Positions 1 to 21,322 are shown, numbered from the stretch's first letter. The stretch: DNA of 64,000 bases from a bacterium (GCA_030149525.1 JASBRJ010000049.1:9019-73018), one strand, 5' to 3'. Notes: a model not told the origin generated them from the sequence alone. Translations and numbers: made by a program.

Positions 1-1968
1 GCAACGACTATCACCATAACCGGTGTACCCACCAGTACTCAGTCGTTCCGCATCATCGCCACCAACGCCAACGGCGCGACCCTGGCCACCATTACCGGAA
101 ATGTCACTGTAACTCTTAACGGCACCACCGTGGTGGACCTGAGCGGCGTGACGGTCACCGTGCCCCAGCCTTCGGCGTCGGCCATCAATGTTCTGGTCTC
201 CAACAACGGAACCGGGAATGCCGGAGACCTCGACCTGTTCGATCGCATCAACAATCTGGTGCGAACCATCACGTCCGGGTCCAATCAGGGAATTACCCTC
301 GATAAACTGAGTACCGGATACCACAACGGCAATACCGATGTGCGAATCCTCAACAAAGCGACCACTCGCACCGGGGCCTTCAATACTAACATGGACCGTC
401 TATACAACGTTCCCAGTTCCAGCGCGATTAAAGGTTCCGACTACATTCAAAGTCGCGGGCTTATGATATTGGCGGACTTCGGTGCCAGCAATCTCTACCT
501 CGTTAGTTCTGCCGGGACTTCCGGAGAGTTCTTCCAAGCTCTGCCTGCTGGTGGGAAACCCTGGGACGTCCTCTATGACGACACCAACGATAGACTTTTT
601 GTGGCCTTCTCTGAGGGAAGCGTATCCGTCTACGACAACTTCGTGGGCGGAAACTTCAATCAAACTCCCAGTCGTACTTTTACTTCACAAGGTCTAGACA
701 ATGCTCACGGGATTGCTTACGACCTGGCCACCGATACTCTCTTTATTTCCGATGTCGGCGCCGTTACCACGGGAGCTAATAGCGATGGCGAAATTTTCAT
801 TTTCTCCAACGCCTCCACCGCCACCGGTTCGGTCATTCCTAAAGCGATCATCGGTGGCTCCAATACCATGCTGGGCAACCCCGTCGACATCGACTTTGCC
901 AATGGAGATCTTCGCGTTGCTGAAAAGACTAACGACAAGCTCTTGATTTTCGCCAACATTCTGCAGTCCACCGGAGGGAACATTGCACCCACCGTAGCGA
1001 CGACGGAAACCAAGCCGGAATCGCTGACCTCTCAAGCAGCCGTCACGGTTGCTTCAGACAACTCCGATATTGACGGCGGCGCGACCGTTCAAAACATCCT
1101 TGTTTCTACAAATCCTAGCTCGGCAACTCCGCCTACCGGTTCGTTCATCAGAATGTCTCCGACTTTGACGGGTAATAGCCAATTCGACCCCGGACTAGGT
1201 TTCGCCACCGAAAGCATCAAAGTCGATACCGTAGGCGACGTCTTTATGACCGGTGACAATCTCCTGGGTCAATTCAATCGTGTCGCAAGCGGTGTTCGAG
1301 ACACAAGCAACTCGAGAGTCCTGAACCAAGACCGCGTAGCCACCGCTACCGGCAGCTTCAAAGGTCTCGACGTGGTCGACTCCCGCGGCGTCATCATCGT
1401 AGCCGACGTGAGCGGTAGCGTTAAGGTCTTCGGCAAATACGGCGAGCTAACAACCCCTATCACCACCACCACGACTCCTGGTAACCCCTGGGATGTGGAC
1501 TACGATGTGGCCAACGATCGCCTGTACGTGGCGCTAACCAACGGCTCTGTAGCGGTCTATGACAACTACTTCGCTAATAACCCCGCCACTGCAACTCGCA
1601 CCATCACCTTCGGTGCAACCAACGCTCACGGTATCGTTCACGATGCGGCCAACAACGTACTGCTGGTCTCCGACGTAGGCGCCACAACCGGCGGCACCAA
1701 CACCGACGGACGACTGTTTGTTATTGCCAACGCCTCCACGGCATCCGGCGCGGTCACCCCCAGCGTCACCATCAGCGGTGCAGCCACCAATCTCGGTGAC
1801 CCCGTTGACGTAGCCTATGACGGCACCAACCTCTACGTTGCAGAGAAGTCTCTGAACTTCGTGCACCGTTTCGACAACATCCGTGCTTCCAACGGCGGCA
1901 ATGTTGCTCCAAGCATCAGCAGAGCCATTACCAAGCCTGAATCTGTGAGCCTCATTACCGGCCTCTAA
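1..1968 (+). CDS. Surface/secreted NHL-like beta-propeller repeat protein, 5'-truncated by the window edge
   Basis: Frame 1 is open from base 1 (ATTITITGVPTSTQSF...) to TAA at 1966-1968. It has two homologous modules (PWDVxYDxxNDRLxVA...AHGI...SDVGA...NASTAxG...LGxPVD...KPES) at about 553-1030 and 1480-1950, and is S/T/N/G rich. Confidence 0.8.
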   Translation, partial: ATTITITGVPTSTQSFRIIATNANGATLATITGNVTVTLNGTTVVDLSGVTVTVPQPSASAINVLVSNNGTGNAGDLDLFDRINNLVRTITSGSNQGITLDKLSTGYHNGNTDVRILNKATTRTGAFNTNMDRLYNVPSSSAIKGSDYIQSRGLMILADFGASNLYLVSSAGTSGEFFQALPAGGKPWDVLYDDTNDRLFVAFSEGSVSVYDNFVGGNFNQTPSRTFTSQGLDNAHGIAYDLATDTLFISDVGAVTTGANSDGEIFIFSNASTATGSVIPKAIIGGSNTMLGNPVDIDFANGDLRVAEKTNDKLLIFANILQSTGGNIAPTVATTETKPESLTSQAAVTVASDNSDIDGGATVQNILVSTNPSSATPPTGSFIRMSPTLTGNSQFDPGLGFATESIKVDTVGDVFMTGDNLLGQFNRVASGVRDTSNSRVLNQDRVATATGSFKGLDVVDSRGVIIVADVSGSVKVFGKYGELTTPITTTTTPGNPWDVDYDVANDRLYVALTNGSVAVYDNYFANNPATATRTITFGATNAHGIVHDAANNVLLVSDVGATTGGTNTDGRLFVIANASTASGAVTPSVTISGAATNLGDPVDVAYDGTNLYVAEKSLNFVHRFDNIRASNGGNVAPSISRAITKPESVSLITGL

Positions 1969-7169: not shown

Positions 7170-7195
7170 GCCGAGGACCTTTCCTCGGCCTTTTT
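7170..7195. terminator. Hairpin / possible terminator
   Basis: GCCGAGG-ACCTTT-CCTCGGC directly downstream of the acetyltransferase stop. The T-run is on the + strand. Confidence 0.45.
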
Positions 7196-7835
7196 ATTGA
7201 CCGAGCTTTGCCCTGGCCGGAACTCCAACGGCAACCACATCTCCCGGAAGATCGTCCACCACGACCCCACCCGCCCCCACAACGCTTCCGCTACCAACGC
7301 TCTTTCCGGGAATCACACAGGCGTTGGTTCCTATCATAACCCTCGGGCCCAGTGTCACGTTACCGGTCAGTCGGGCACCGGGACAAAGGAAGCTGAAGTC
7401 GCCCACTCGACAGTCATGACTGATACTGCTGTGGACTCCAAGAATCACATGGGCTCCCACCACCACATTCGTACTCACCGTGACTCTGGGAAAGATCATG
7501 GCTCCAGGACCGATCTGGCAGGCGGGGGAGAAGTGAGCCAGAGGAGACACGGCAGAACCGAAGGTTGCCCCCAACTCCAAGGCTCGGTCCGCTATCCTTT
7601 GGCGAACGGAATTATCACCGATAGCCACGATGAGATCGAACTCACTCAGATGCTCTTCAAGCCAAGAGAAGCCACCCAGCACCTCGTACCCAAGCACCCG
7701 CTCCCCCTTCCGCTCGGAGCGATCGTCTAAGAAGCCCAAAAGACTCGGGCGTCCCTGCTCCTGATGCGCGTGCATTACGATCTCAGCGACTTCCCGAGCA
7801 TGACCACCACTTCCGTAAATAACAATAGGCTTCAT
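7194..7835 (-). CDS. NeuD/PglD-family sugar O/N-acetyltransferase (hexapeptide repeat)
   Basis: MKPIVIYGSGGHAREV, IAIGDNSVR, left-handed beta-helix repeats, GVPAR. Start moved to ATG at 7835. Confidence 0.9.
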   Translation of the reverse strand: MKPIVIYGSGGHAREVAEIVMHAHQEQGRPSLLGFLDDRSERKGERVLGYEVLGGFSWLEEHLSEFDLIVAIGDNSVRQRIADRALELGATFGSAVSPLAHFSPACQIGPGAMIFPRVTVSTNVVVGAHVILGVHSSISHDCRVGDFSFLCPGARLTGNVTLGPRVMIGTNACVIPGKSVGSGSVVGAGGVVVDDLPGDVVAVGVPARAKLGQ

Positions 7836-7927
7836 GCAAAACTCCCGAACATAGGTCTCTATGCTCGGGAGTTTTGTTTCGAGAATTGCACTAACCTGCA
7901 AGTCCTATCTTGGCAGGGAGAAAGATA

Positions 7928-8275
7928 TTACCAGCGTCCGCGATTCATCTTCTTTCGCTGCCCCGGCGGCATTCCGTGAGGGTGGCGAGGGTGATTTCGA
8001 CGCTCCCACTGATAAGGGTCCTGGACATAACGGATTCGATTCTGTTGGGGAACATAGTAATTGATGCTTTGACCGGGCTGCAGGTCTGACCAGGAAACGC
8101 GGAGTCCTCCAAGTTGAAAAGTCGCCTGCTGCTGCGGTACGAGATAGGCTGCTCCCCCTCGTTGAATCAGTACCCCTTCCGGATAAACTCCATAGACGGT
8201 ACCACTCTGATAGGGCTGGGCCCACAGTCCGCCGCTCAAATATAAGAAACATCCTAATGTTAGTAACTTCTTCAT
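7928..8275 (-). CDS. Small secreted protein
   Basis: Sec signal (MKKLLTLGCFLYLSGGLWA), beta-rich core, C-terminal HPRHPHGMPPGQRKK. Confidence 0.7.
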   Translation of the reverse strand: MKKLLTLGCFLYLSGGLWAQPYQSGTVYGVYPEGVLIQRGGAAYLVPQQQATFQLGGLRVSWSDLQPGQSINYYVPQQNRIRYVQDPYQWERRNHPRHPHGMPPGQRKKMNRGRW

Positions 8276-8340
8276 CGGTCAAGTCCTTTCACGACTCCCC
8301 CAGTCTCCATATTGCGGACAGCGAAGGATTCGACCAACCT

Positions 8341-9639
8341 TCAGGAGCTTACAGTAGCCTTATCCTTTTGGGGTAAGACACCGGGTGCCAGAAACCGCTT
8401 ATCCTCTGCCGTTGCTCCCCAGGACTCAACCCAGACAGGAGCGAGTTCACTGAGACAACTTAACAACCCCGCGGCGCCGGCAACCTCACGATAGATTGGG
8501 GTCACGCTCTCTAGCTGATGAGTGAGGTGGGCCTGGTAATCCAGATCCCTGAACCGACCTGGCGCGACCTCCTCTAGCTCTCGATAGCGTTCAGCCACCT
8601 TCCAGCCATCGGAGATCCGATCCAGGTGAGTCACGGCCAGTCCGTCCAATCCACCGCACACCCGCTTGGCGTAGCGCAAGAGGGGCAGATCCAACCAACC
8701 GTTACGAAAACCTTCCTGCCAGGGTCCCCATCGGTTGTGGAGTTCCGGAAGTAGAAGCTGTTTCTGTTCGGTGGGAAAAGGACCGGCCCCATGGCGAGTA
8801 GCGTAACTCCTCACCACACCTAAACGATGAGCCTCACCACCCCATTCGCGCACTAGCTCCAAAGCGTTGTCGAAGGTGCAGGTGGACCAGGTTGTGTAGG
8901 GGTGAAACCCGCGCCACTCATCGAGCAAAACCCCCTGAGCGCCCTCGAAAACAACCGATCCATCAGTGGGACCTTGCAACCCCACGCGACTCGAGACGAT
9001 CTGAGCCTCCATAAGAAACCGCTCAAGAGCCTCCTCGCCTTCCAGGAGCGCCAGTTCTTGAGTCGCCAACGGCTCATTTTCCAGCTCTCTCCTTCGAGCT
9101 CGAAACTCACTGTAGTACCTTTGCTGGATACGACAAAGTTTTCGGAACAAACGTTCCTGGTGAGACAGATCGTCTGCAACGACACCTTCCTCAGGAAACT
9201 CCAAAGAGTGATGCATGGTCTCTCCCACACCTAGTCCACAGGAACCGTGGCGCTCGTCTCCTCTCAGGATCTCCCGCAGACGATTGGCCGCCTGGTGGAA
9301 TGGAGTGCTCACTCTGGCCCGGGGGTCGATGACAACCCTGGACAGCGCATTCTCGACGCCTTTCCCCTCTAGAACCTCAGCCTCCCTTAGCAACCCTCCG
9401 GGATGGAGAACCATGAAGCGCGACAGATAGGTCCTCACTCCTGGAACGAACGTTCCCGCTCCGAACTGACTGAAGATATGCTCTCTGCCGTCCTCGGTGA
9501 CCACCGCGTGGCCCGCCTGGGCGCCGCCGTTGAAGCGAACAACCCAGGCGGCATCGGTTTGCCGCACCAGAGCATCGGTGATGGTACCTTTACCCGAGTC
9601 ACCGAACCCGAGGTCGACTACGATGATAGCCTTTACCAT
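8341..9639 (-). CDS. Adenylosuccinate synthetase paralog (PurA-like, non-canonical)
   Basis: GFGDSGKG, RFNGGAQAGH, FEGAQGVLLD, HPYTTWS, YATRHGAGPFPTE, GWLD. The GxTTGRxR aspartate loop is absent. Confidence 0.85.
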   Translation of the reverse strand: MVKAIIVVDLGFGDSGKGTITDALVRQTDAAWVVRFNGGAQAGHAVVTEDGREHIFSQFGAGTFVPGVRTYLSRFMVLHPGGLLREAEVLEGKGVENALSRVVIDPRARVSTPFHQAANRLREILRGDERHGSCGLGVGETMHHSLEFPEEGVVADDLSHQERLFRKLCRIQQRYYSEFRARRRELENEPLATQELALLEGEEALERFLMEAQIVSSRVGLQGPTDGSVVFEGAQGVLLDEWRGFHPYTTWSTCTFDNALELVREWGGEAHRLGVVRSYATRHGAGPFPTEQKQLLLPELHNRWGPWQEGFRNGWLDLPLLRYAKRVCGGLDGLAVTHLDRISDGWKVAERYRELEEVAPGRFRDLDYQAHLTHQLESVTPIYREVAGAAGLLSCLSELAPVWVESWGATAEDKRFLAPGVLPQKDKATVSS

Positions 9640-10571
9640 GCGGCCACCGGCTCCACTGGAACAGGGCCTGAACCATCCTTGTCGAGAGTAGCGGCAAACG
9701 GGCTGATGGCCCGGACCACACTACCAACCTGTTGTCGAGTGAGACCTTCTTTGCTCATCTTAACAGCCAGCATATCAAGATCAGTTACCAATCCCTCGCA
9801 GAGCGCCACCAGTCCGGCCGCCACATGACAGGTGTCTTGAGGCTGGTCCAGCACCAGAACATGATCCCCTAAATATTGGCGCCACACATTCTCCACTCGT
9901 CGCCGACCCTGGTCGGGTATCAGGAAGAAAGGATGATAGCTGCAGCTCAACTCATCGACGACTTGCTGTAACGGGATATCTCTCTCGATATCCGCGTCGA
10001 TAAGCGATTTTACCACCGACTTGGAGGTGGTCTTAAACGGCGGCTCGTCACCGGTCATAAAGAAGTAGCCTCGTTTGTTACGTCGCTCCATGCTGTCGGT
10101 GATGGTGTGTCGGGCGGCAAAATACATGGCAAGGTCGTAAGACTCTCCGCCGTTTCCTCCGCCTCGACCCTCCAACCAACTCCAGGTCAACCAGCGGTCA
10201 ATATCCTCCGCCGTGGACTCAAATTGCCCTACCTGTAGCGGACCACTGTCACAGAAGGCATCTCCGAAGGCGAGAAACATCACCTGAGGGTCGGTCACAC
10301 CCGAGGCAAGAAGGCCCTGCATGAAGTGGGGCAACTCGGTCTTGGCCAGAAGCTCGGGGATGGTTCCCATGGAGCCGGTAACATCCAGAGCGAAGACAAT
10401 GGGTAAAGAGTTCGGGTGATCCGCGCTGTCCCGGCTCTCTCTGAACTTCACACCATGCGGATTCATCAGGGGATGAACCTTTCGCTGGCGAAAGACCTCT
10501 TCCCGGCTCTTTGTGCTCCTGGTGGAAACAATCTCCTGATGCGCCTTGTAGCTGTAATCTCCGTATCCCAT
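9633..10571 (-). CDS. von Willebrand factor A (MIDAS) domain protein
   Basis: IVFALDVTGSM (DxTxS MIDAS), GGGNGGESY, FMTGDE. ATG at 10571 has a GAGG RBS; 7-bp overlap with the PurA-like start. Confidence 0.85.
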   Translation of the reverse strand: MGYGDYSYKAHQEIVSTRSTKSREEVFRQRKVHPLMNPHGVKFRESRDSADHPNSLPIVFALDVTGSMGTIPELLAKTELPHFMQGLLASGVTDPQVMFLAFGDAFCDSGPLQVGQFESTAEDIDRWLTWSWLEGRGGGNGGESYDLAMYFAARHTITDSMERRNKRGYFFMTGDEPPFKTTSKSVVKSLIDADIERDIPLQQVVDELSCSYHPFFLIPDQGRRRVENVWRQYLGDHVLVLDQPQDTCHVAAGLVALCEGLVTDLDMLAVKMSKEGLTRQQVGSVVRAISPFAATLDKDGSGPVPVEPVAAW

Positions 10572-10600
10572 ATGGGTTTCCTCACTTTCTTGTTCACGCA

Positions 10601-11425
10601 CTAGAGCGCGAACGGTACGAACCGAGGCGGACCAAATTCCGCCCTGGCAACTTTTTTAAGCTCCGACTGCAAATGATGGGGACGATCAAATTGGTAGGCC
10701 GACTCGGCCAGTTCACGGAGCGCCCTGGGAGCGCCGCTCCCCATCAACTCGGTCAGACAGCGACCACTGTCGGCAAGATCCTGGTGCGCTCCCATCACCG
10801 CCTCTCCCCAGCCACAAAAGGCCACTCCGTGGTCTCTCGGGTGAACCAGGAGATGTTCAGGCCGCAGTGCCCGATGGCTGTATCCCAAATCTCTCAAAAC
10901 TGTTATCTGGTCGAGAACCCGGCTCCAAATCCATACCAGCGCTGCAGGGTCAAGGCCGGTGGGTCTGCGCTTGCGAGCATAGGCAAGAGTATGGACAAAC
11001 CCGCTTCTCCATCCCGTTACCAGGACGGCTTTTCCACGCCAGGAGCCGAGCTTGAGCGGCTGGGGAAGCAATCTGTCTAAGTAGGAATTCCGGTGTTGAA
11101 GATGACGCAGGCTCGACCACTCAGACTCCAGTCGCTCGACATCCTCTGCCACCTTGAGAACGACTTGCCGGGTGGCCGCACAGGCTGTTCGCGCCAGCAG
11201 CACTTCAGAATGCCCACCAACAGCGATTCTGCCCCGAACTCGATAGCGCGCCGAACCCAACTCCACTTCAAAAAGTCCGGCTGGAACAAGCTCAGGCCGC
11301 GGCTCAGGAATTCGATATCCAAGGTCTACTGCAGGTTTATATTCGGTATCGCAATACAGACACAGATAGCCCGAAAGGGGGGCTCCGCAGTTGGAACAGG
11401 TCTTGGACAAAACATTTATGCTCAT
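10601..11425 (-). CDS. Zn-ribbon + protein kinase-like (probable pseudokinase)
   Basis: CSNCG...CLYCD zinc ribbon, IAVGGHSEV Gly-loop remnant, VVLK lysine, HRALRPEH in place of HRD, FCGW in place of DFG. Start is ATG 11425 or TTG 11410. Confidence 0.75.
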   Translation of the reverse strand: MSINVLSKTCSNCGAPLSGYLCLYCDTEYKPAVDLGYRIPEPRPELVPAGLFEVELGSARYRVRGRIAVGGHSEVLLARTACAATRQVVLKVAEDVERLESEWSSLRHLQHRNSYLDRLLPQPLKLGSWRGKAVLVTGWRSGFVHTLAYARKRRPTGLDPAALVWIWSRVLDQITVLRDLGYSHRALRPEHLLVHPRDHGVAFCGWGEAVMGAHQDLADSGRCLTELMGSGAPRALRELAESAYQFDRPHHLQSELKKVARAEFGPPRFVPFAL

Positions 11426-11434
11426 AATGAGCAT
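11418..11434. promoter_or_regulatory. Perfect 8-1-8 palindrome, candidate operator in a divergent region
   Basis: ATGCTCAT-A-ATGAGCAT lies at the 5' end of the kinase/vWA/PurA operon, about 100 bp upstream of the divergent HK/RR operon. Confidence 0.5.
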
Positions 11435-11535
11435 TATGCACAATTCGCCAAGACTTGTCAATTCTTCTCAAAAAGAGCATAAATATCTTAAAAGACGGCT
11501 CAAGGGACCCAATACTCTCCTCCGAATCCTTGGGT

Positions 11536-19099: not shown

Positions 19100-21322
19100 A
19101 TGCTTGCCATCGGTACCTTCGGTCCAACTGCTGCCCGCTCACTCGGCGCCGATAGATACACTCCGGCCGCCCCCAAAACAGATTTTCATAGCTCCACTAT
19201 TGAAGACAGAGTCGAAATCACTTCGGCCCGCGCTCAAGAAATCGAGGCCAATCTAGGACCTCGCGAAGAGGGCCAATTGCTGGTGAAAGTGTCTGCCTCT
19301 TTGACCAGTGAACAGCTCAAAGATTTGGCGGCAGACCACGGTGCCACCCTCAAACAAGAGTTGAAGATCCCCGCTGTGATGCAAGAAGCCTTCGGGGGCA
19401 AGCTTGTCGTTCTAGAGACCGGCTCGGGACTCTCCGAAGCTCAAACCATGGCGCTTCTGGAGCAGGATGAGCGAATTCTCAGCAGCGGAACCAACGACCG
19501 ACTGGAACTGATCGACGGACGCCGTGGTCAACATAGGCTGGAAGACGACGGCTCTCAACAGCCCCAACCGCCCTCTGACGATAAACCGAAAGAAAAGCTC
19601 CCCAACGACGTTCATCCCGAACAGTGGAACATCCGCAACCGCAACTTTCCAGGCGGAGTGGATGGAGCCGATATTCAAGCCGGTCAGGCCTGGACCATCA
19701 CTACCGGCAAGAGCGCCAAAGAGGGCGGACCGGTGGTGGCGGTTATCGATAGCGGTATCGATGCTTTCCACGAAGATCTCAAAGACAACATGTGGAACAA
19801 CCCACGAGAGATCAAGAACGGCGAAGACGACGACTGGGACGGGTTCGTCGACGATATCCACGGAATCGACGGACATAACGGCTCCGGCAATATCTACGAT
19901 GAGATCGGCCACGGAACGCATGTGGCGGGGGTCATTGGAGCTGTGAGCAACAACGGCAAGGGGGTCGCGGGGATCAACTGGGACACCCAGCTTCTGGGCG
20001 TCAAGATCACCGACGGTGACCGCCTAAGCTTACTGGCTGCCATCACCGGGATTCTCTACGCCGCAGAACATGGTGCCCGGGTAGCCAATCATAGCTGGGG
20101 TGGTCTCATCGACAATCCTATCCTCAAAGACGTCATGGCTAGCTCCCCCACCCTCCATGTATGCGCCGCCGGTAACCGAGAACAAAACAGTGACACTACT
20201 CCGAGCTATCCCGCCGCTTACGATCTCCCCAACGTGATCTCGGTAGCCGCCTCAACGCGGAAAGACTCTCACGTCTTCTTTAGCAACTGGGGAACCGAGT
20301 CGGTGGACCTTCACGCTCCCGGGGCAATCGTTTACTCAACAACCCCTATCAACACCTACCAGGAGATGAGCGGCACCTCGATGGCAGCACCTCATGTCTC
20401 CGGAGTGGCAGCACTCATCGCAAGCAAGTATCCGGAGGCCTCCAACCAGGAGATCAAAGATCGCATCATCTACAGCGCCGACAAAGTCGAGTCATTTAGA
20501 GACAAGAGCGTCTCGGGCGGCCGTCTCAACGCCTTCCGAGCGCTGGAAGACGACACCACGGCGCCGGCTCCGGTGACCGATCTGAAACTGACCGACCTGA
20601 CCGCCGACGGCTTCCATCTGACCTGGACCGGCGTGGGCGACGACGGCATGGAGGGCGTTCTTTCCCAATACGATGTATGGGCTCACTACGGCGACAAGAA
20701 AACTCGCCTGGTCCCAGAGTTTCCCAAAGGCCCGGGAGCCAAAGAGTCCGCCTCTTTTCGCACCGAACCGATCTCCACAGATAGGCCGTTGAGAGTCACC
20801 TTGCAACCGGTCGACAACGTGGGCAACCGACCCCAGGCCTCGGTTATCGAAACCGTGCTGCCGAAGGCCGCTGTACCGTTCAGCGACGGTTTCGACTCAG
20901 AAACCAGTGACTGGGTCACTGAGGGCGAGTGGGGTCGAGTAGAGGAAAAGGGACGGGGGATGGTCTTCACCGACAGTCCCAACGGCGACTACAAGGATAG
21001 CACCGACACCGGAATTCTCTCCCCGGTGTTCGATTTGAGCAACATGCGAAGCTCCACCCTCACCTTCGACGCCAAACTGAAGGCTGAAAAATGGGACTTC
21101 ATCTGGGTGGAAGCCAGCAATAACGGCGGAGAAGACTTTGAGCATCTTGGGGTTATTCGCCCCAACGACGACCGAGACTGGCAGAAGCACAAGTTCGATC
21201 TGTCGGCCCTGGACGGCAACCCCCAGGTCCAACTGCGTTTACGTTTCCGAACCAGCAACAAAGGAACCGATGACGGAGCCTATATCGACAACGTGAAAGT
21301 GGAAGCCGCCCAACTGAAATAG
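19100..21322 (+). CDS. Subtilisin-like S8 serine peptidase with FN3 and C-terminal beta-sandwich domains
   Basis: Catalytic triad VIDSG, GHGTHVAG, GTSMAAPHVSG; AAGN oxyanion motif; FN3 (APVTDLK...LTWT). No Sec signal evident. Confidence 0.95.
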   Translation: MLAIGTFGPTAARSLGADRYTPAAPKTDFHSSTIEDRVEITSARAQEIEANLGPREEGQLLVKVSASLTSEQLKDLAADHGATLKQELKIPAVMQEAFGGKLVVLETGSGLSEAQTMALLEQDERILSSGTNDRLELIDGRRGQHRLEDDGSQQPQPPSDDKPKEKLPNDVHPEQWNIRNRNFPGGVDGADIQAGQAWTITTGKSAKEGGPVVAVIDSGIDAFHEDLKDNMWNNPREIKNGEDDDWDGFVDDIHGIDGHNGSGNIYDEIGHGTHVAGVIGAVSNNGKGVAGINWDTQLLGVKITDGDRLSLLAAITGILYAAEHGARVANHSWGGLIDNPILKDVMASSPTLHVCAAGNREQNSDTTPSYPAAYDLPNVISVAASTRKDSHVFFSNWGTESVDLHAPGAIVYSTTPINTYQEMSGTSMAAPHVSGVAALIASKYPEASNQEIKDRIIYSADKVESFRDKSVSGGRLNAFRALEDDTTAPAPVTDLKLTDLTADGFHLTWTGVGDDGMEGVLSQYDVWAHYGDKKTRLVPEFPKGPGAKESASFRTEPISTDRPLRVTLQPVDNVGNRPQASVIETVLPKAAVPFSDGFDSETSDWVTEGEWGRVEEKGRGMVFTDSPNGDYKDSTDTGILSPVFDLSNMRSSTLTFDAKLKAEKWDFIWVEASNNGGEDFEHLGVIRPNDDRDWQKHKFDLSALDGNPQVQLRLRFRTSNKGTDDGAYIDNVKVEAAQLK

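Follow-up and report, generated by a model that had tools for sequence, protein, structure and literature searches.

A PurA-like ligase with rebuilt substrate pockets, encoded beside a vWA/MIDAS partner and a zinc-ribbon pseudokinase

The stretch of DNA analysed here, referred to as the window, comprises 64,000 nucleotides from a bacterium (GCA_030149525.1, JASBRJ010000049.1:9019-73018), and positions are counted from its first letter. It contains a gene for a PurA-like protein, a member of the adenylosuccinate synthetase (AdSS) superfamily, which stands third in a cassette on the minus strand, after a zinc-ribbon pseudokinase gene and a gene for a vWA protein with a metal-ion-dependent adhesion site (MIDAS). 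An earlier note on this DNA, made from the sequence alone, had placed a PurA paralog with a replaced aspartate-binding loop at 8341-9639. The open reading frame (ORF) exists as described, but it runs on the minus strand, with its ATG at 9639, its stop codon at 8341-8343 and a product of 432 amino acids (aa). The cassette comprises the following elements:

8341..9639, minus strand: PurA-like ligase gene (432 aa, P0001), assigned by PF00709, an AlphaFold2 (AF2) model and Foldseek; under all NCBIfam PurA and PurZ cut-offs.
9633..10571, minus strand: vWA/MIDAS partner gene (312 aa), with ATG at 10571 and a GAGGAA Shine-Dalgarno sequence 7 nt upstream.
10601..11425, minus strand: zinc-ribbon pseudokinase gene, identified by profile and sequence; the ORF is open to TTG 11461, and the likely start is ATG 11425.
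11433..11461, minus strand: promoter-like site TTGACA-17-CATAAT (11/12 matches), a consensus match only, upstream of the cassette.

The vWA gene ends in TGG-TAA, which overlaps the ATG of the PurA-like gene (ATGGTAA), and this stop/start overlap implies translational coupling of the two genes. The promoter-like site, which is sigma-70-like and near consensus, ends 7 nt before ATG 11425. Since TTG 11461 coincides with the -35 hexamer, the gene for the pseudokinase probably begins at 11425 (or 11434) and has little or no leader.

The PurA-like protein is a member of the AdSS superfamily by fold and by Pfam. It matches PF00709 with 209.7 bits (E = 8e-62, residues 6-388), its significant sequence matches in the PDB are all AdSS or PurZ, and it shares 29% identity with Escherichia coli PurA. 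The AF2 model, computed from an alignment of 40 members, has a predicted local distance difference test (pLDDT) value of 88.6 and a predicted template modelling score of 0.90; the loop 239-251 is its sole low-confidence stretch. Foldseek superimposes the model on long-form AdSS structures (1cg3, 1cg4, 1iwe) with template modelling (TM) scores of 0.73-0.77, the E. coli enzyme giving 0.77, versus 0.55-0.57 for PurZ and PurZ0 (6fko, 7odx, 7vf6). The curated PurA equivalog models, bacterial and archaeal, are missed more than twofold (NF002223, 167.4 bits versus a cut-off of 402; TIGR00184, 143.8 versus 395.6; NF010355, 127.5 versus 445; NF010357, 105.2 versus 700), and the PurZ model NF038379 is missed sixfold (47.2 bits versus 300). 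With this score and a TM score of about 0.55 to PurZ structures, identity with PurZ was rejected, in agreement with the earlier note, which contrasted the protein with PurZ as an enzyme that keeps Asp. No second PurA gene was found within the 64-kb window.

PurA uses its P-loop, together with an Asp, a Lys, a His, a Gln and a guanine-recognising Asp, to bind guanosine triphosphate (GTP) and to transfer the gamma-phosphate to O6 of a 6-oxopurine. From the work of Honzatko and Fromm on E. coli AdSS, we take the aspartate site to consist of T300, T301, R303, R305 and R131, and the 5'-phosphate site for inosine monophosphate (IMP) to consist of N38, T129, T239 and R143', the last being R143 of the partner subunit. 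Titles in the PDB name complexes of K16Q, R143L and R303L mutants of E. coli AdSS (1cg1, 1cg3, 1cg4), so that these residues have been targeted in structural mutagenesis. Residues were mapped with a MAFFT alignment that included E. coli K-12 purA (L005), 121 family members and one phage homolog, and E. coli residues follow the literature numbering. The segments that carry the comparison are, all on the minus strand:

9583..9609: P-loop GFGDSGKGT, residues 11-19 (D14 = E. coli D13; K17 = K16); both residues are invariant over the 87 + 70 loci.
9508..9531: NGGAQAGH, residues 37-44; by alignment, the catalytic His44 (= H41) is kept and N38 is replaced by an invariant Q41.
9217..9252: RHGSCGLGVGET in place of AIGTTGRGIGPA, with T128/T129 replaced by S/C and R131 by L; H131, S133 and C134 are nearly invariant.
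8872..8949: FEGAQGVLLDEWRGFHPYTTWSTCTF; Q235 (= Q224) and T250 (= T239) are kept, and W242, H246 and W251 are new conserved residues (alignment and AF2 model).
8767..8799: TRHGAGPFPTE, in which V273 is replaced by an invariant H283 (alignment and clade conservation).
8689..8751: the rewritten aspartate loop, LPELHNRWGPWQEGFRNGWLD, with clade-invariant N302, W307, Q308 and R312 (alignment and clade conservation).
8620..8631: THLD, residues 337-340 (TKLD in PurA); by alignment, the guanine-recognising Asp340 is kept.

The protein shares with PurA (EC 6.3.4.4; 1ADE/1CG0; PF00709, TIGR00184) its fold, its length, the GDxGKG motif with the catalytic Asp and the general acid of the GH motif, as well as the Gln of FEGAQG (residues 231-236), the equivalent of T239, the guanine-binding Asp of the (T)xLD motif and, in the main clade, the C-terminal S-x-G. 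In E. coli terms, D13, K16, H41, Q224, T239, D333 and S414 are kept. The Asp of THLD is present in 84 of 87 clade members, with His or Cys at the place of the PurA Lys (K331->H in the window), and S406-x-G408 is kept in the main clade and absent from a short viral subfamily. In terms of conserved residues, the GTP-binding and phosphoryl-transfer apparatus appears intact.

The substrate sites are different. Residues 297-315, which correspond to the aspartate loop of PurA, read LPELHNRWGPWQEGFRNGW, and the L-aspartate site of GxTTGRxRR (T300, T301, R303, R305) and R131 is absent: the loop is GPWQEGFRNGW, in which W/Q stand at T300/T301 and R303 is lost. Because the rewritten loop is one residue shorter than that of PurA, R312 may correspond to R305 or R306, and the loss of R305 is therefore not certain. 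The GTTGRGIG of PurA has become GSCGLGVG (residues 132-139), and a few residues downstream of RHGSCGLGVGET the E. coli R143 is replaced by P. The IMP 5'-phosphate clamps are thus altered throughout the clade (N38->Q, T129->C, R143->P), and the T239 equivalent, T250, is alone kept. The aspartate determinants and most of the 5'-phosphate determinants are, by alignment, demonstrably lost, and new invariant residues, including His, Trp, Gln and Asn, line the predicted pocket in their place. All of the motifs quoted in the earlier note, kept and changed, are present in the translation, and its central claim, that the aspartate-binding determinants are replaced in a protein that keeps the catalytic and GTP machinery, is borne out by alignment to E. 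coli PurA across 87 + 70 loci. Because the whole clade has the replacement, adenylosuccinate is unlikely to be made in the normal way, and the suggestion of a different amine, a different nucleotide or both appears reasonable. The earlier note left out that the 5'-phosphate site is also rewritten, which puts the nucleotide substrate in question besides the amine, and it overlooked the near-obligate cassette.

The new pocket residues are conserved, as are the catalytic ones. Over 87 genome and phage loci, D14, K17, H44, T250, H283, N302 and Q308 are invariant (100%), and Q41, H131, C134, W251, W307 and R312 are present in at least 96%. The same residue signature is kept in 70 viral contigs, including the divergent short subfamily. 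A working signature of the clade was defined as Q41, H131-x-S-C134, H283, N302, [WFY]307-Q308 and R312, in addition to D14, K17, H44, Q235 and T250; it is complete in the protein of the window, each of its residues being found in 96-100% of the 87 loci. Judged from these alignments, the catalytic and GTP-binding core is strongly constrained, and both substrate pockets are rebuilt into a new, likewise constrained pocket. The Pfam E value of 8e-62, the invariant substitutions across the clade and its presence in more than eight phyla together indicate that the pattern reflects neither chance nor decay.

Relatives number in the thousands in a word-indexed search, and the best 120 are 46-92% identical over their full length; across the clade, identity ranges from 42 to 92% in more than eight phyla. 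A scan of species-representative genomes with the clade-specific peptides GFHP[HY]TTW and VVR[FY]NGGAQ matched at least 598 genomes. Among the matches listed are Eremiobacterota, Myxococcota, Chloroflexota, Actinomycetota, Burkholderiales, Acidobacteriota and Armatimonadota, together with Saccharibacteria, Uhrbacteria and Paceibacterota of the genome-reduced candidate phyla radiation (CPR); the closest among them are metagenome-assembled genomes (MAGs) of Eremiobacterota (Candidatus Xenobia), at 58%. In IMG/VR, 167 contigs, many of them 100-500 kb long, contain a clade member. The PurA-like/vWA pair is carried by about 200 cluster C1 mycobacteriophages and by large phages of Vibrio and Rhizobium (the two genes are adjacent in Vibrio phage Va1 and Rhizobium phage TM39), and it is borne by Rhodococcus megaplasmids, pRHL1 of R. 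jostii RHA1 included. Complete genomes with the cassette include Dactylosporangium NZ_CP192032 and Micromonospora NZ_CP192019. The order in mycobacteriophage I3 is kinase gp270, vWA gp271, gp272 and PurA-like gp273. The cluster C1 mycobacteriophages have an extra 112-aa gene between the vWA and PurA-like genes (I3 gp272, L006:4654-4992), with no Pfam match. About ten studies of marine sites, ballast water and hydrothermal vents contributed the metagenome runs, at least 20 in number, in which the cassette DNA of the window (8341-11461) recurs near word-for-word, which indicates that the source organism is a widespread marine bacterium; no RNA sequencing run was found among the runs matched.

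Linkage of the three genes was analyzed in both directions. When the flanking ORFs of 86 loci were clustered, the conserved families were the PurA-like, vWA and kinase-like proteins only. By hidden Markov model (HMM), a vWA gene adjoins the PurA-like gene at 70 of the 71 genome loci whose upstream DNA is long enough and on 78 of 80 IMG/VR contigs; conversely, a PurA-like gene is present at 57 of 59 metagenome loci that were found through the vWA gene and have enough downstream DNA. The kinase-like gene, also detected by HMM, is found at 66/80 genome loci and 51/80 viral loci. Membership of the PurA-like protein in a near-obligate pair with the vWA/MIDAS protein, as its enzymatic member and usually preceded by the pseudokinase, is thereby largely established. 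This arrangement sets it apart from PurA, which is encoded by a stand-alone housekeeping gene.

The vWA partner (PHROG 2971) was identified by a fold search alone, as a Pfam scan and a profile search against PDB sequences gave no match. Its AF2 model has a pLDDT value of 92.8, and Foldseek assigns a probability of 1.0 to integrin beta-I, vWF-A and NorD vWA domains. The family numbers 1,672 representatives at 50% identity (E <= 1e-3) in a library of 1.84 billion proteins. Four elements of its gene, all on the minus strand, are relevant here:

10536..10571: N-terminal motif MGYGDYSYKAHQ (Met-Gly, then [YSGHN][GS]x[WY]S), from the sequence.
10425-10442: conserved RESRDS, from the sequence.
10365..10385: MIDAS motif DVTGSMG, with D63, T65 and S67 invariant in the alignment.
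10044-10052: GDE of the MIDAS pattern, from the sequence.

The partner begins with MGYGDYS in the window, and the N-terminal consensus of the family is MG[YSGHN][GS]x[WY]S, with MGGG, MGYG and MGGS as the commonest beginnings. Overall, some 93-99% of partners begin with Met-Gly. It is found in 129 of 150 independently gene-called representatives, at 143 of 144 paired loci (the remaining one has a TTG start followed by Gly) and at 75 of 76 metagenome loci. The non-MG cases among the 150 are mostly fragments or mis-starts, with about nine full-length exceptions that begin with MA or MS followed by K-G. The pattern looks like a requirement for a small residue that would be exposed after removal of Met, overwhelmingly Gly. 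Since Met-Gly is kept where the kinase gene is absent, the motif belongs to the vWA/PurA-like pair. In some cluster C1 mycobacteriophages (among them Pinkcreek, Wally, Sauce and Lukilu) the vWA match falls in two pieces over about 1,580 bp, versus 819 bp elsewhere; the split region is annotated as 'HNH endonuclease' in Sauce, and the insert is probably an intein or a homing element.

The third protein combines a zinc ribbon with a kinase fold that lacks the catalytic aspartates. A search of its profile against the PDB gives CK2alpha at 1e-14, with HGA and vGW aligned to HRD and DWG. The protein retains the beta3 Lys and the alphaC Glu, and HRD is replaced clade-wide by HGA or HRA, DFG/DWG by xGW, and the Asn of the catalytic loop by His. 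The diagnostic elements in the window were read from the sequence, on the minus strand:

11351-11398: CxxC...CxxC of the zinc ribbon.
10853-10876: HRD replaced by HRA.
10805-10819: DFG replaced by CGW.

At one further locus (P0143, ENA ERZ27296333) the kinase partner has 536 aa and matches Pfam Pkinase PF00069, which suggests that some subfamilies of the cassette may keep an active kinase.

Other neighbours do not recur. A 125-aa ORF (7905-8282) and a PglD-like acetyltransferase (7194-7901) were rejected as members of the cassette, since they are found at 0 of 86 loci, and an apparent fourth conserved gene, a cluster of 28 loci, was rejected as antisense shadow ORFs in high-GC DNA. Recent horizontal transfer into the genome was likewise rejected, since the guanine-plus-cytosine (GC) fraction of the cassette, 0.569, matches that of the window, 0.553. 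An Rfam scan of the whole window returned no family and hence no riboswitch. Elsewhere in the window, a large protein runs off its start (1-1968, plus strand) and contains a pair of internal Thr-, Ser- and Asn-rich repeats, each about 300 aa long, and a 740-aa ORF (19100-21322, plus strand) has the subtilisin-type motifs DSGID, HGTHVAG and GTSMAAPH, as read by eye. At a locus in a Deltaproteobacteria MAG (L019), a different ORF of 324 aa lies directly upstream of an orphan PurA-like gene. At 11 genome loci the cassette adjoins an NrtR-like regulator, a Nudix protein with a degenerate box and an NrtR winged helix (PF00293 + PF21906); examples are L017:2807-3505 (minus strand), L086:3284-4066 (plus strand) and L169:6280-6927 (plus strand). 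The hosts are Saccharibacteria of the CPR and several Actinomycetota, and such a regulator is also found directly downstream of the cassette on the Rhodococcus opacus plasmid pLPS8. These neighbours hint at control of the cassette by a nucleotide-derived ligand.

Taken together, the protein very probably represents a distinct and widespread clade of the AdSS superfamily that is not the housekeeping PurA, and the enzymatic half of a near-obligate pair with the vWA protein. The clade is also distinct from PurZ and PurZ0, the N6-succino-2-amino-2'-deoxyadenylate synthases of Z-genome phages (6FM1, 6TNH, 7ODX, 7VF6). These share with it the position of a phage-found branch of the superfamily with changed specificity, but they are short forms of about 340-365 aa and keep aspartate as co-substrate (Asp is bound in 6TNH), whereas the retained aspartate site of PurZ is replaced in the PurA-like protein. 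The PHROG entry phrog_1211, labelled '2-aminooxy adenylosuccinate synthetase', lumps the two groups together, and the label has been copied to RefSeq phage records. No functional study behind this label was found among the papers searched, the sole paper with the phrase being a soil viromics preprint.

With regard to function, PurA-type chemistry may be kept, that is, GTP-dependent phosphorylation of a purine oxygen (or that of a related lactam) followed by displacement by an amine, and the amine would no longer be free aspartate. Given the near-invariant Met-Gly of the vWA partner, a protein amine has to be considered seriously, and the most likely one would be that of the N-terminal glycine, its alpha-amino group being exposed after removal of Met; the partner would thereby receive a covalently attached purine nucleotide (or nucleoside) as a tag. 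The pseudokinase, with the Lys and Glu of its nucleotide pocket and without the catalytic Asp, would then act as a reader or scaffold and not as a kinase. That the distinct clade performs PurA-type ligation with the N-terminal glycine of its partner as the amine is put forward tentatively, as the preferred reading, though one that falls somewhat short of an even chance. For the single step in which that glycine provides the amine, an assignment made by analogy, we would say possible but doubtful; the most specific version, in which a C6-activated 6-oxopurine nucleotide (or nucleoside or base) is joined to Gly2 and the adenine-like tag is read by the pocket of the pseudokinase, we consider unlikely as it stands, though worth stating.

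The analogy is to enzymes of the QueC family. The QueC-like Cap9 of type IV CBASS takes as its amine not ammonia but the alpha-amine of Gly2 in the CD-NTase that is its partner, whose N-terminus reads M(G/S)G(G/S)GG (10.1101/2025.04.06.647259). Likewise, QatC and QatB depend on an N-terminal MGTS motif (PMC13279940). Both systems, Cap9/Cap10 (NDG on Gly2 of CdnD) and QatC/QatB, share with the present cassette a paralog of a purine-biosynthesis enzyme beside a partner with a near-invariant N-terminal Met-Gly, and the Cap9 partner motif resembles the commonest vWA N-termini, MGGG, MGYG and MGGS. The enzymes themselves are not homologous and have unrelated folds: Cap9 and QatC are ATP-PPases that adenylate a carboxylate, whereas the PurA-like protein belongs with the GTP-dependent, O6-phosphorylating P-loop ligases. 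The PurA-like cassette may work like QueC-type conjugation, a likeness of logic only.

Several observations weigh against conjugation to the partner. The partners of Cap9 and QatC are a CD-NTase and QatB with long floppy tails, and the vWA protein has an N-terminus that is predicted to be ordered: in the AF2 monomer, residues 1-10 have a mean pLDDT of 89, with coil at 1-7 and helix at 8-18, so that the N-terminus may be docked and not a free tail, and Met-Gly could be structural. The partners that begin with MA or MS, about 6% of the full-length ones, still pair with a PurA-like gene, and glycine is therefore not absolutely required. In an analysis of mutual information with average product correction over 143 vWA/PurA-like pairs, the N-terminal columns did not rise above background and clade structure was dominant; this result is uninformative, as it neither supports nor excludes contact between the vWA N-terminus and the active site. 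The orphan gene of the Deltaproteobacteria MAG (L019:5983-7320) has the full signature and no vWA or kinase gene within 6 kb, and is one of only two exceptions among the loci with enough flank. Rewriting of the 5'-phosphate site leaves the nucleotide substrate uncertain as well. The NrtR-like neighbours fit a small-molecule product equally well, and so does the position of the phage copies amid genes of nucleotide and NAD metabolism. No functional study of any clade member was found by full-text search, whose matches were genome announcements in which the label 'PurA-like adenylosuccinate synthetase' occurs.

Some of these observations are shared by an alternative in which the enzyme releases a modified nucleotide, either an N6-substituted purine nucleotide built with an amine other than aspartate or the product of another oxo-nucleotide or a dinucleotide, to serve as a signal, a modified precursor or a pool-manipulating metabolite, with the vWA protein and the pseudokinase as regulators or scaffolds. 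PurZ shows that a new small-molecule specificity can evolve in the superfamily (6tnh and 7odx are among the fold matches), the cassette is flanked at the 11 genome loci and on the Rhodococcus plasmid by NrtR-like regulators, whose usual ligands are nucleotide-derived, the phage copies have the metabolic neighbours described above, and an ordered partner N-terminus weakens the idea of a protein substrate. Against this, a soluble metabolic enzyme seldom needs a coupled vWA partner that is near-obligate (97-99% pairing from either gene), the conserved neighbours include no lyase or other enzyme that would act next, and the near-invariant Met-Gly is left unexplained. We regard a small-molecule product as a real possibility, if a rather doubtful one.

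A role of the cassette in anti-phage defence or counter-defence, as a system of the TerY-P or ternary-conflict type whose effector is the PurA-like enzyme, is distinctly unlikely. The TerY-P triad (TerY vWA, Ser/Thr kinase and PP2C) shares with it a vWA/MIDAS gene beside a eukaryote-like kinase fold in a mobile, multi-phylum module, an architecture described by Anantharaman, Iyer and Aravind (2012); the present cassette is mobile across more than eight phyla, plasmids and phages, and Cap9 and QatC, which offer the nearest precedents in mechanism, act in defence. By contrast with the triad, the kinase-like protein is without the HRD and DFG aspartates, neither a PP2C phosphatase nor any other effector recurs in the neighbourhood, and the triad has no PurA-like ligase. 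Membership in a defence system of PADLOC-DB v2 was rejected, since its models match neither the PurA-like nor the vWA protein and the kinase gives weak, generic matches to PglW and PD-T4-6 kinase domains (E = 4e-6 to 5e-3). The neighbourhood in the window is housekeeping or regulatory, and the cassette equals the window in GC. Abundance in lytic large phages argues against classical host defence, though not against a conflict role generally.

The rewriting of both classical substrate sites, for aspartate and for the IMP phosphate, would also fit a GTP-binding or GTP-hydrolysing switch, or a pseudoenzyme on the PurA scaffold, that regulates or assembles the vWA-pseudokinase complex and forms no C-N bond. 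One partner is already a pseudoenzyme, and vWA proteins commonly pair with NTPases, as in MoxR/NorQ-NorD; the NorD vWA domain is among the fold matches. The residues needed solely for the chemistry at the purine, D14 (general base), H44 (general acid), Q235 and T250, are nevertheless invariant over more than 150 loci, and the rewritten loops are themselves invariant (H283, N302, W307-Q308, R312), as for a specific and not a relaxed pocket, which makes a non-ligase clearly improbable.

A divergent but functional adenylosuccinate synthetase, either the PurA of the organism or a spare copy, is rated least likely of all and can hardly be credited: relatives are listed publicly as 'adenylosuccinate synthase', the protein shares its fold and catalytic residues with PurA, and R312 might replace R305, but four bacterial and archaeal equivalog cut-offs are missed by more than twofold, T300, T301, R303, R131, R143, T129 and N38 are all replaced, and the clade is found on Rhodococcus megaplasmids and in lytic phages and CPR bacteria, always with the vWA partner.

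The 'adenylosuccinate synthetase' and PurZ-like labels in databases are thus almost certainly wrong for the vWA-linked clade, and its existence raises the question of what a PurA scaffold produces once aspartate has been removed. A small-molecule product would be a new nucleotide metabolite that bacteria have in common with their large phages. Should the protein adduct be real, the cassette would be categorically new: its product would be a new post-translational modification, an N-terminally 'purinylated' protein not described before, and it would be the second case, independent of QueC-family deazaguanylation, in which machinery of purine biosynthesis acts as a protein tagger. This would point to a general rule by which nucleotide-biosynthesis enzymes are recruited to tag the N-termini of partner proteins, and the tagging system itself would be spread over hundreds of bacterial species and large phages.

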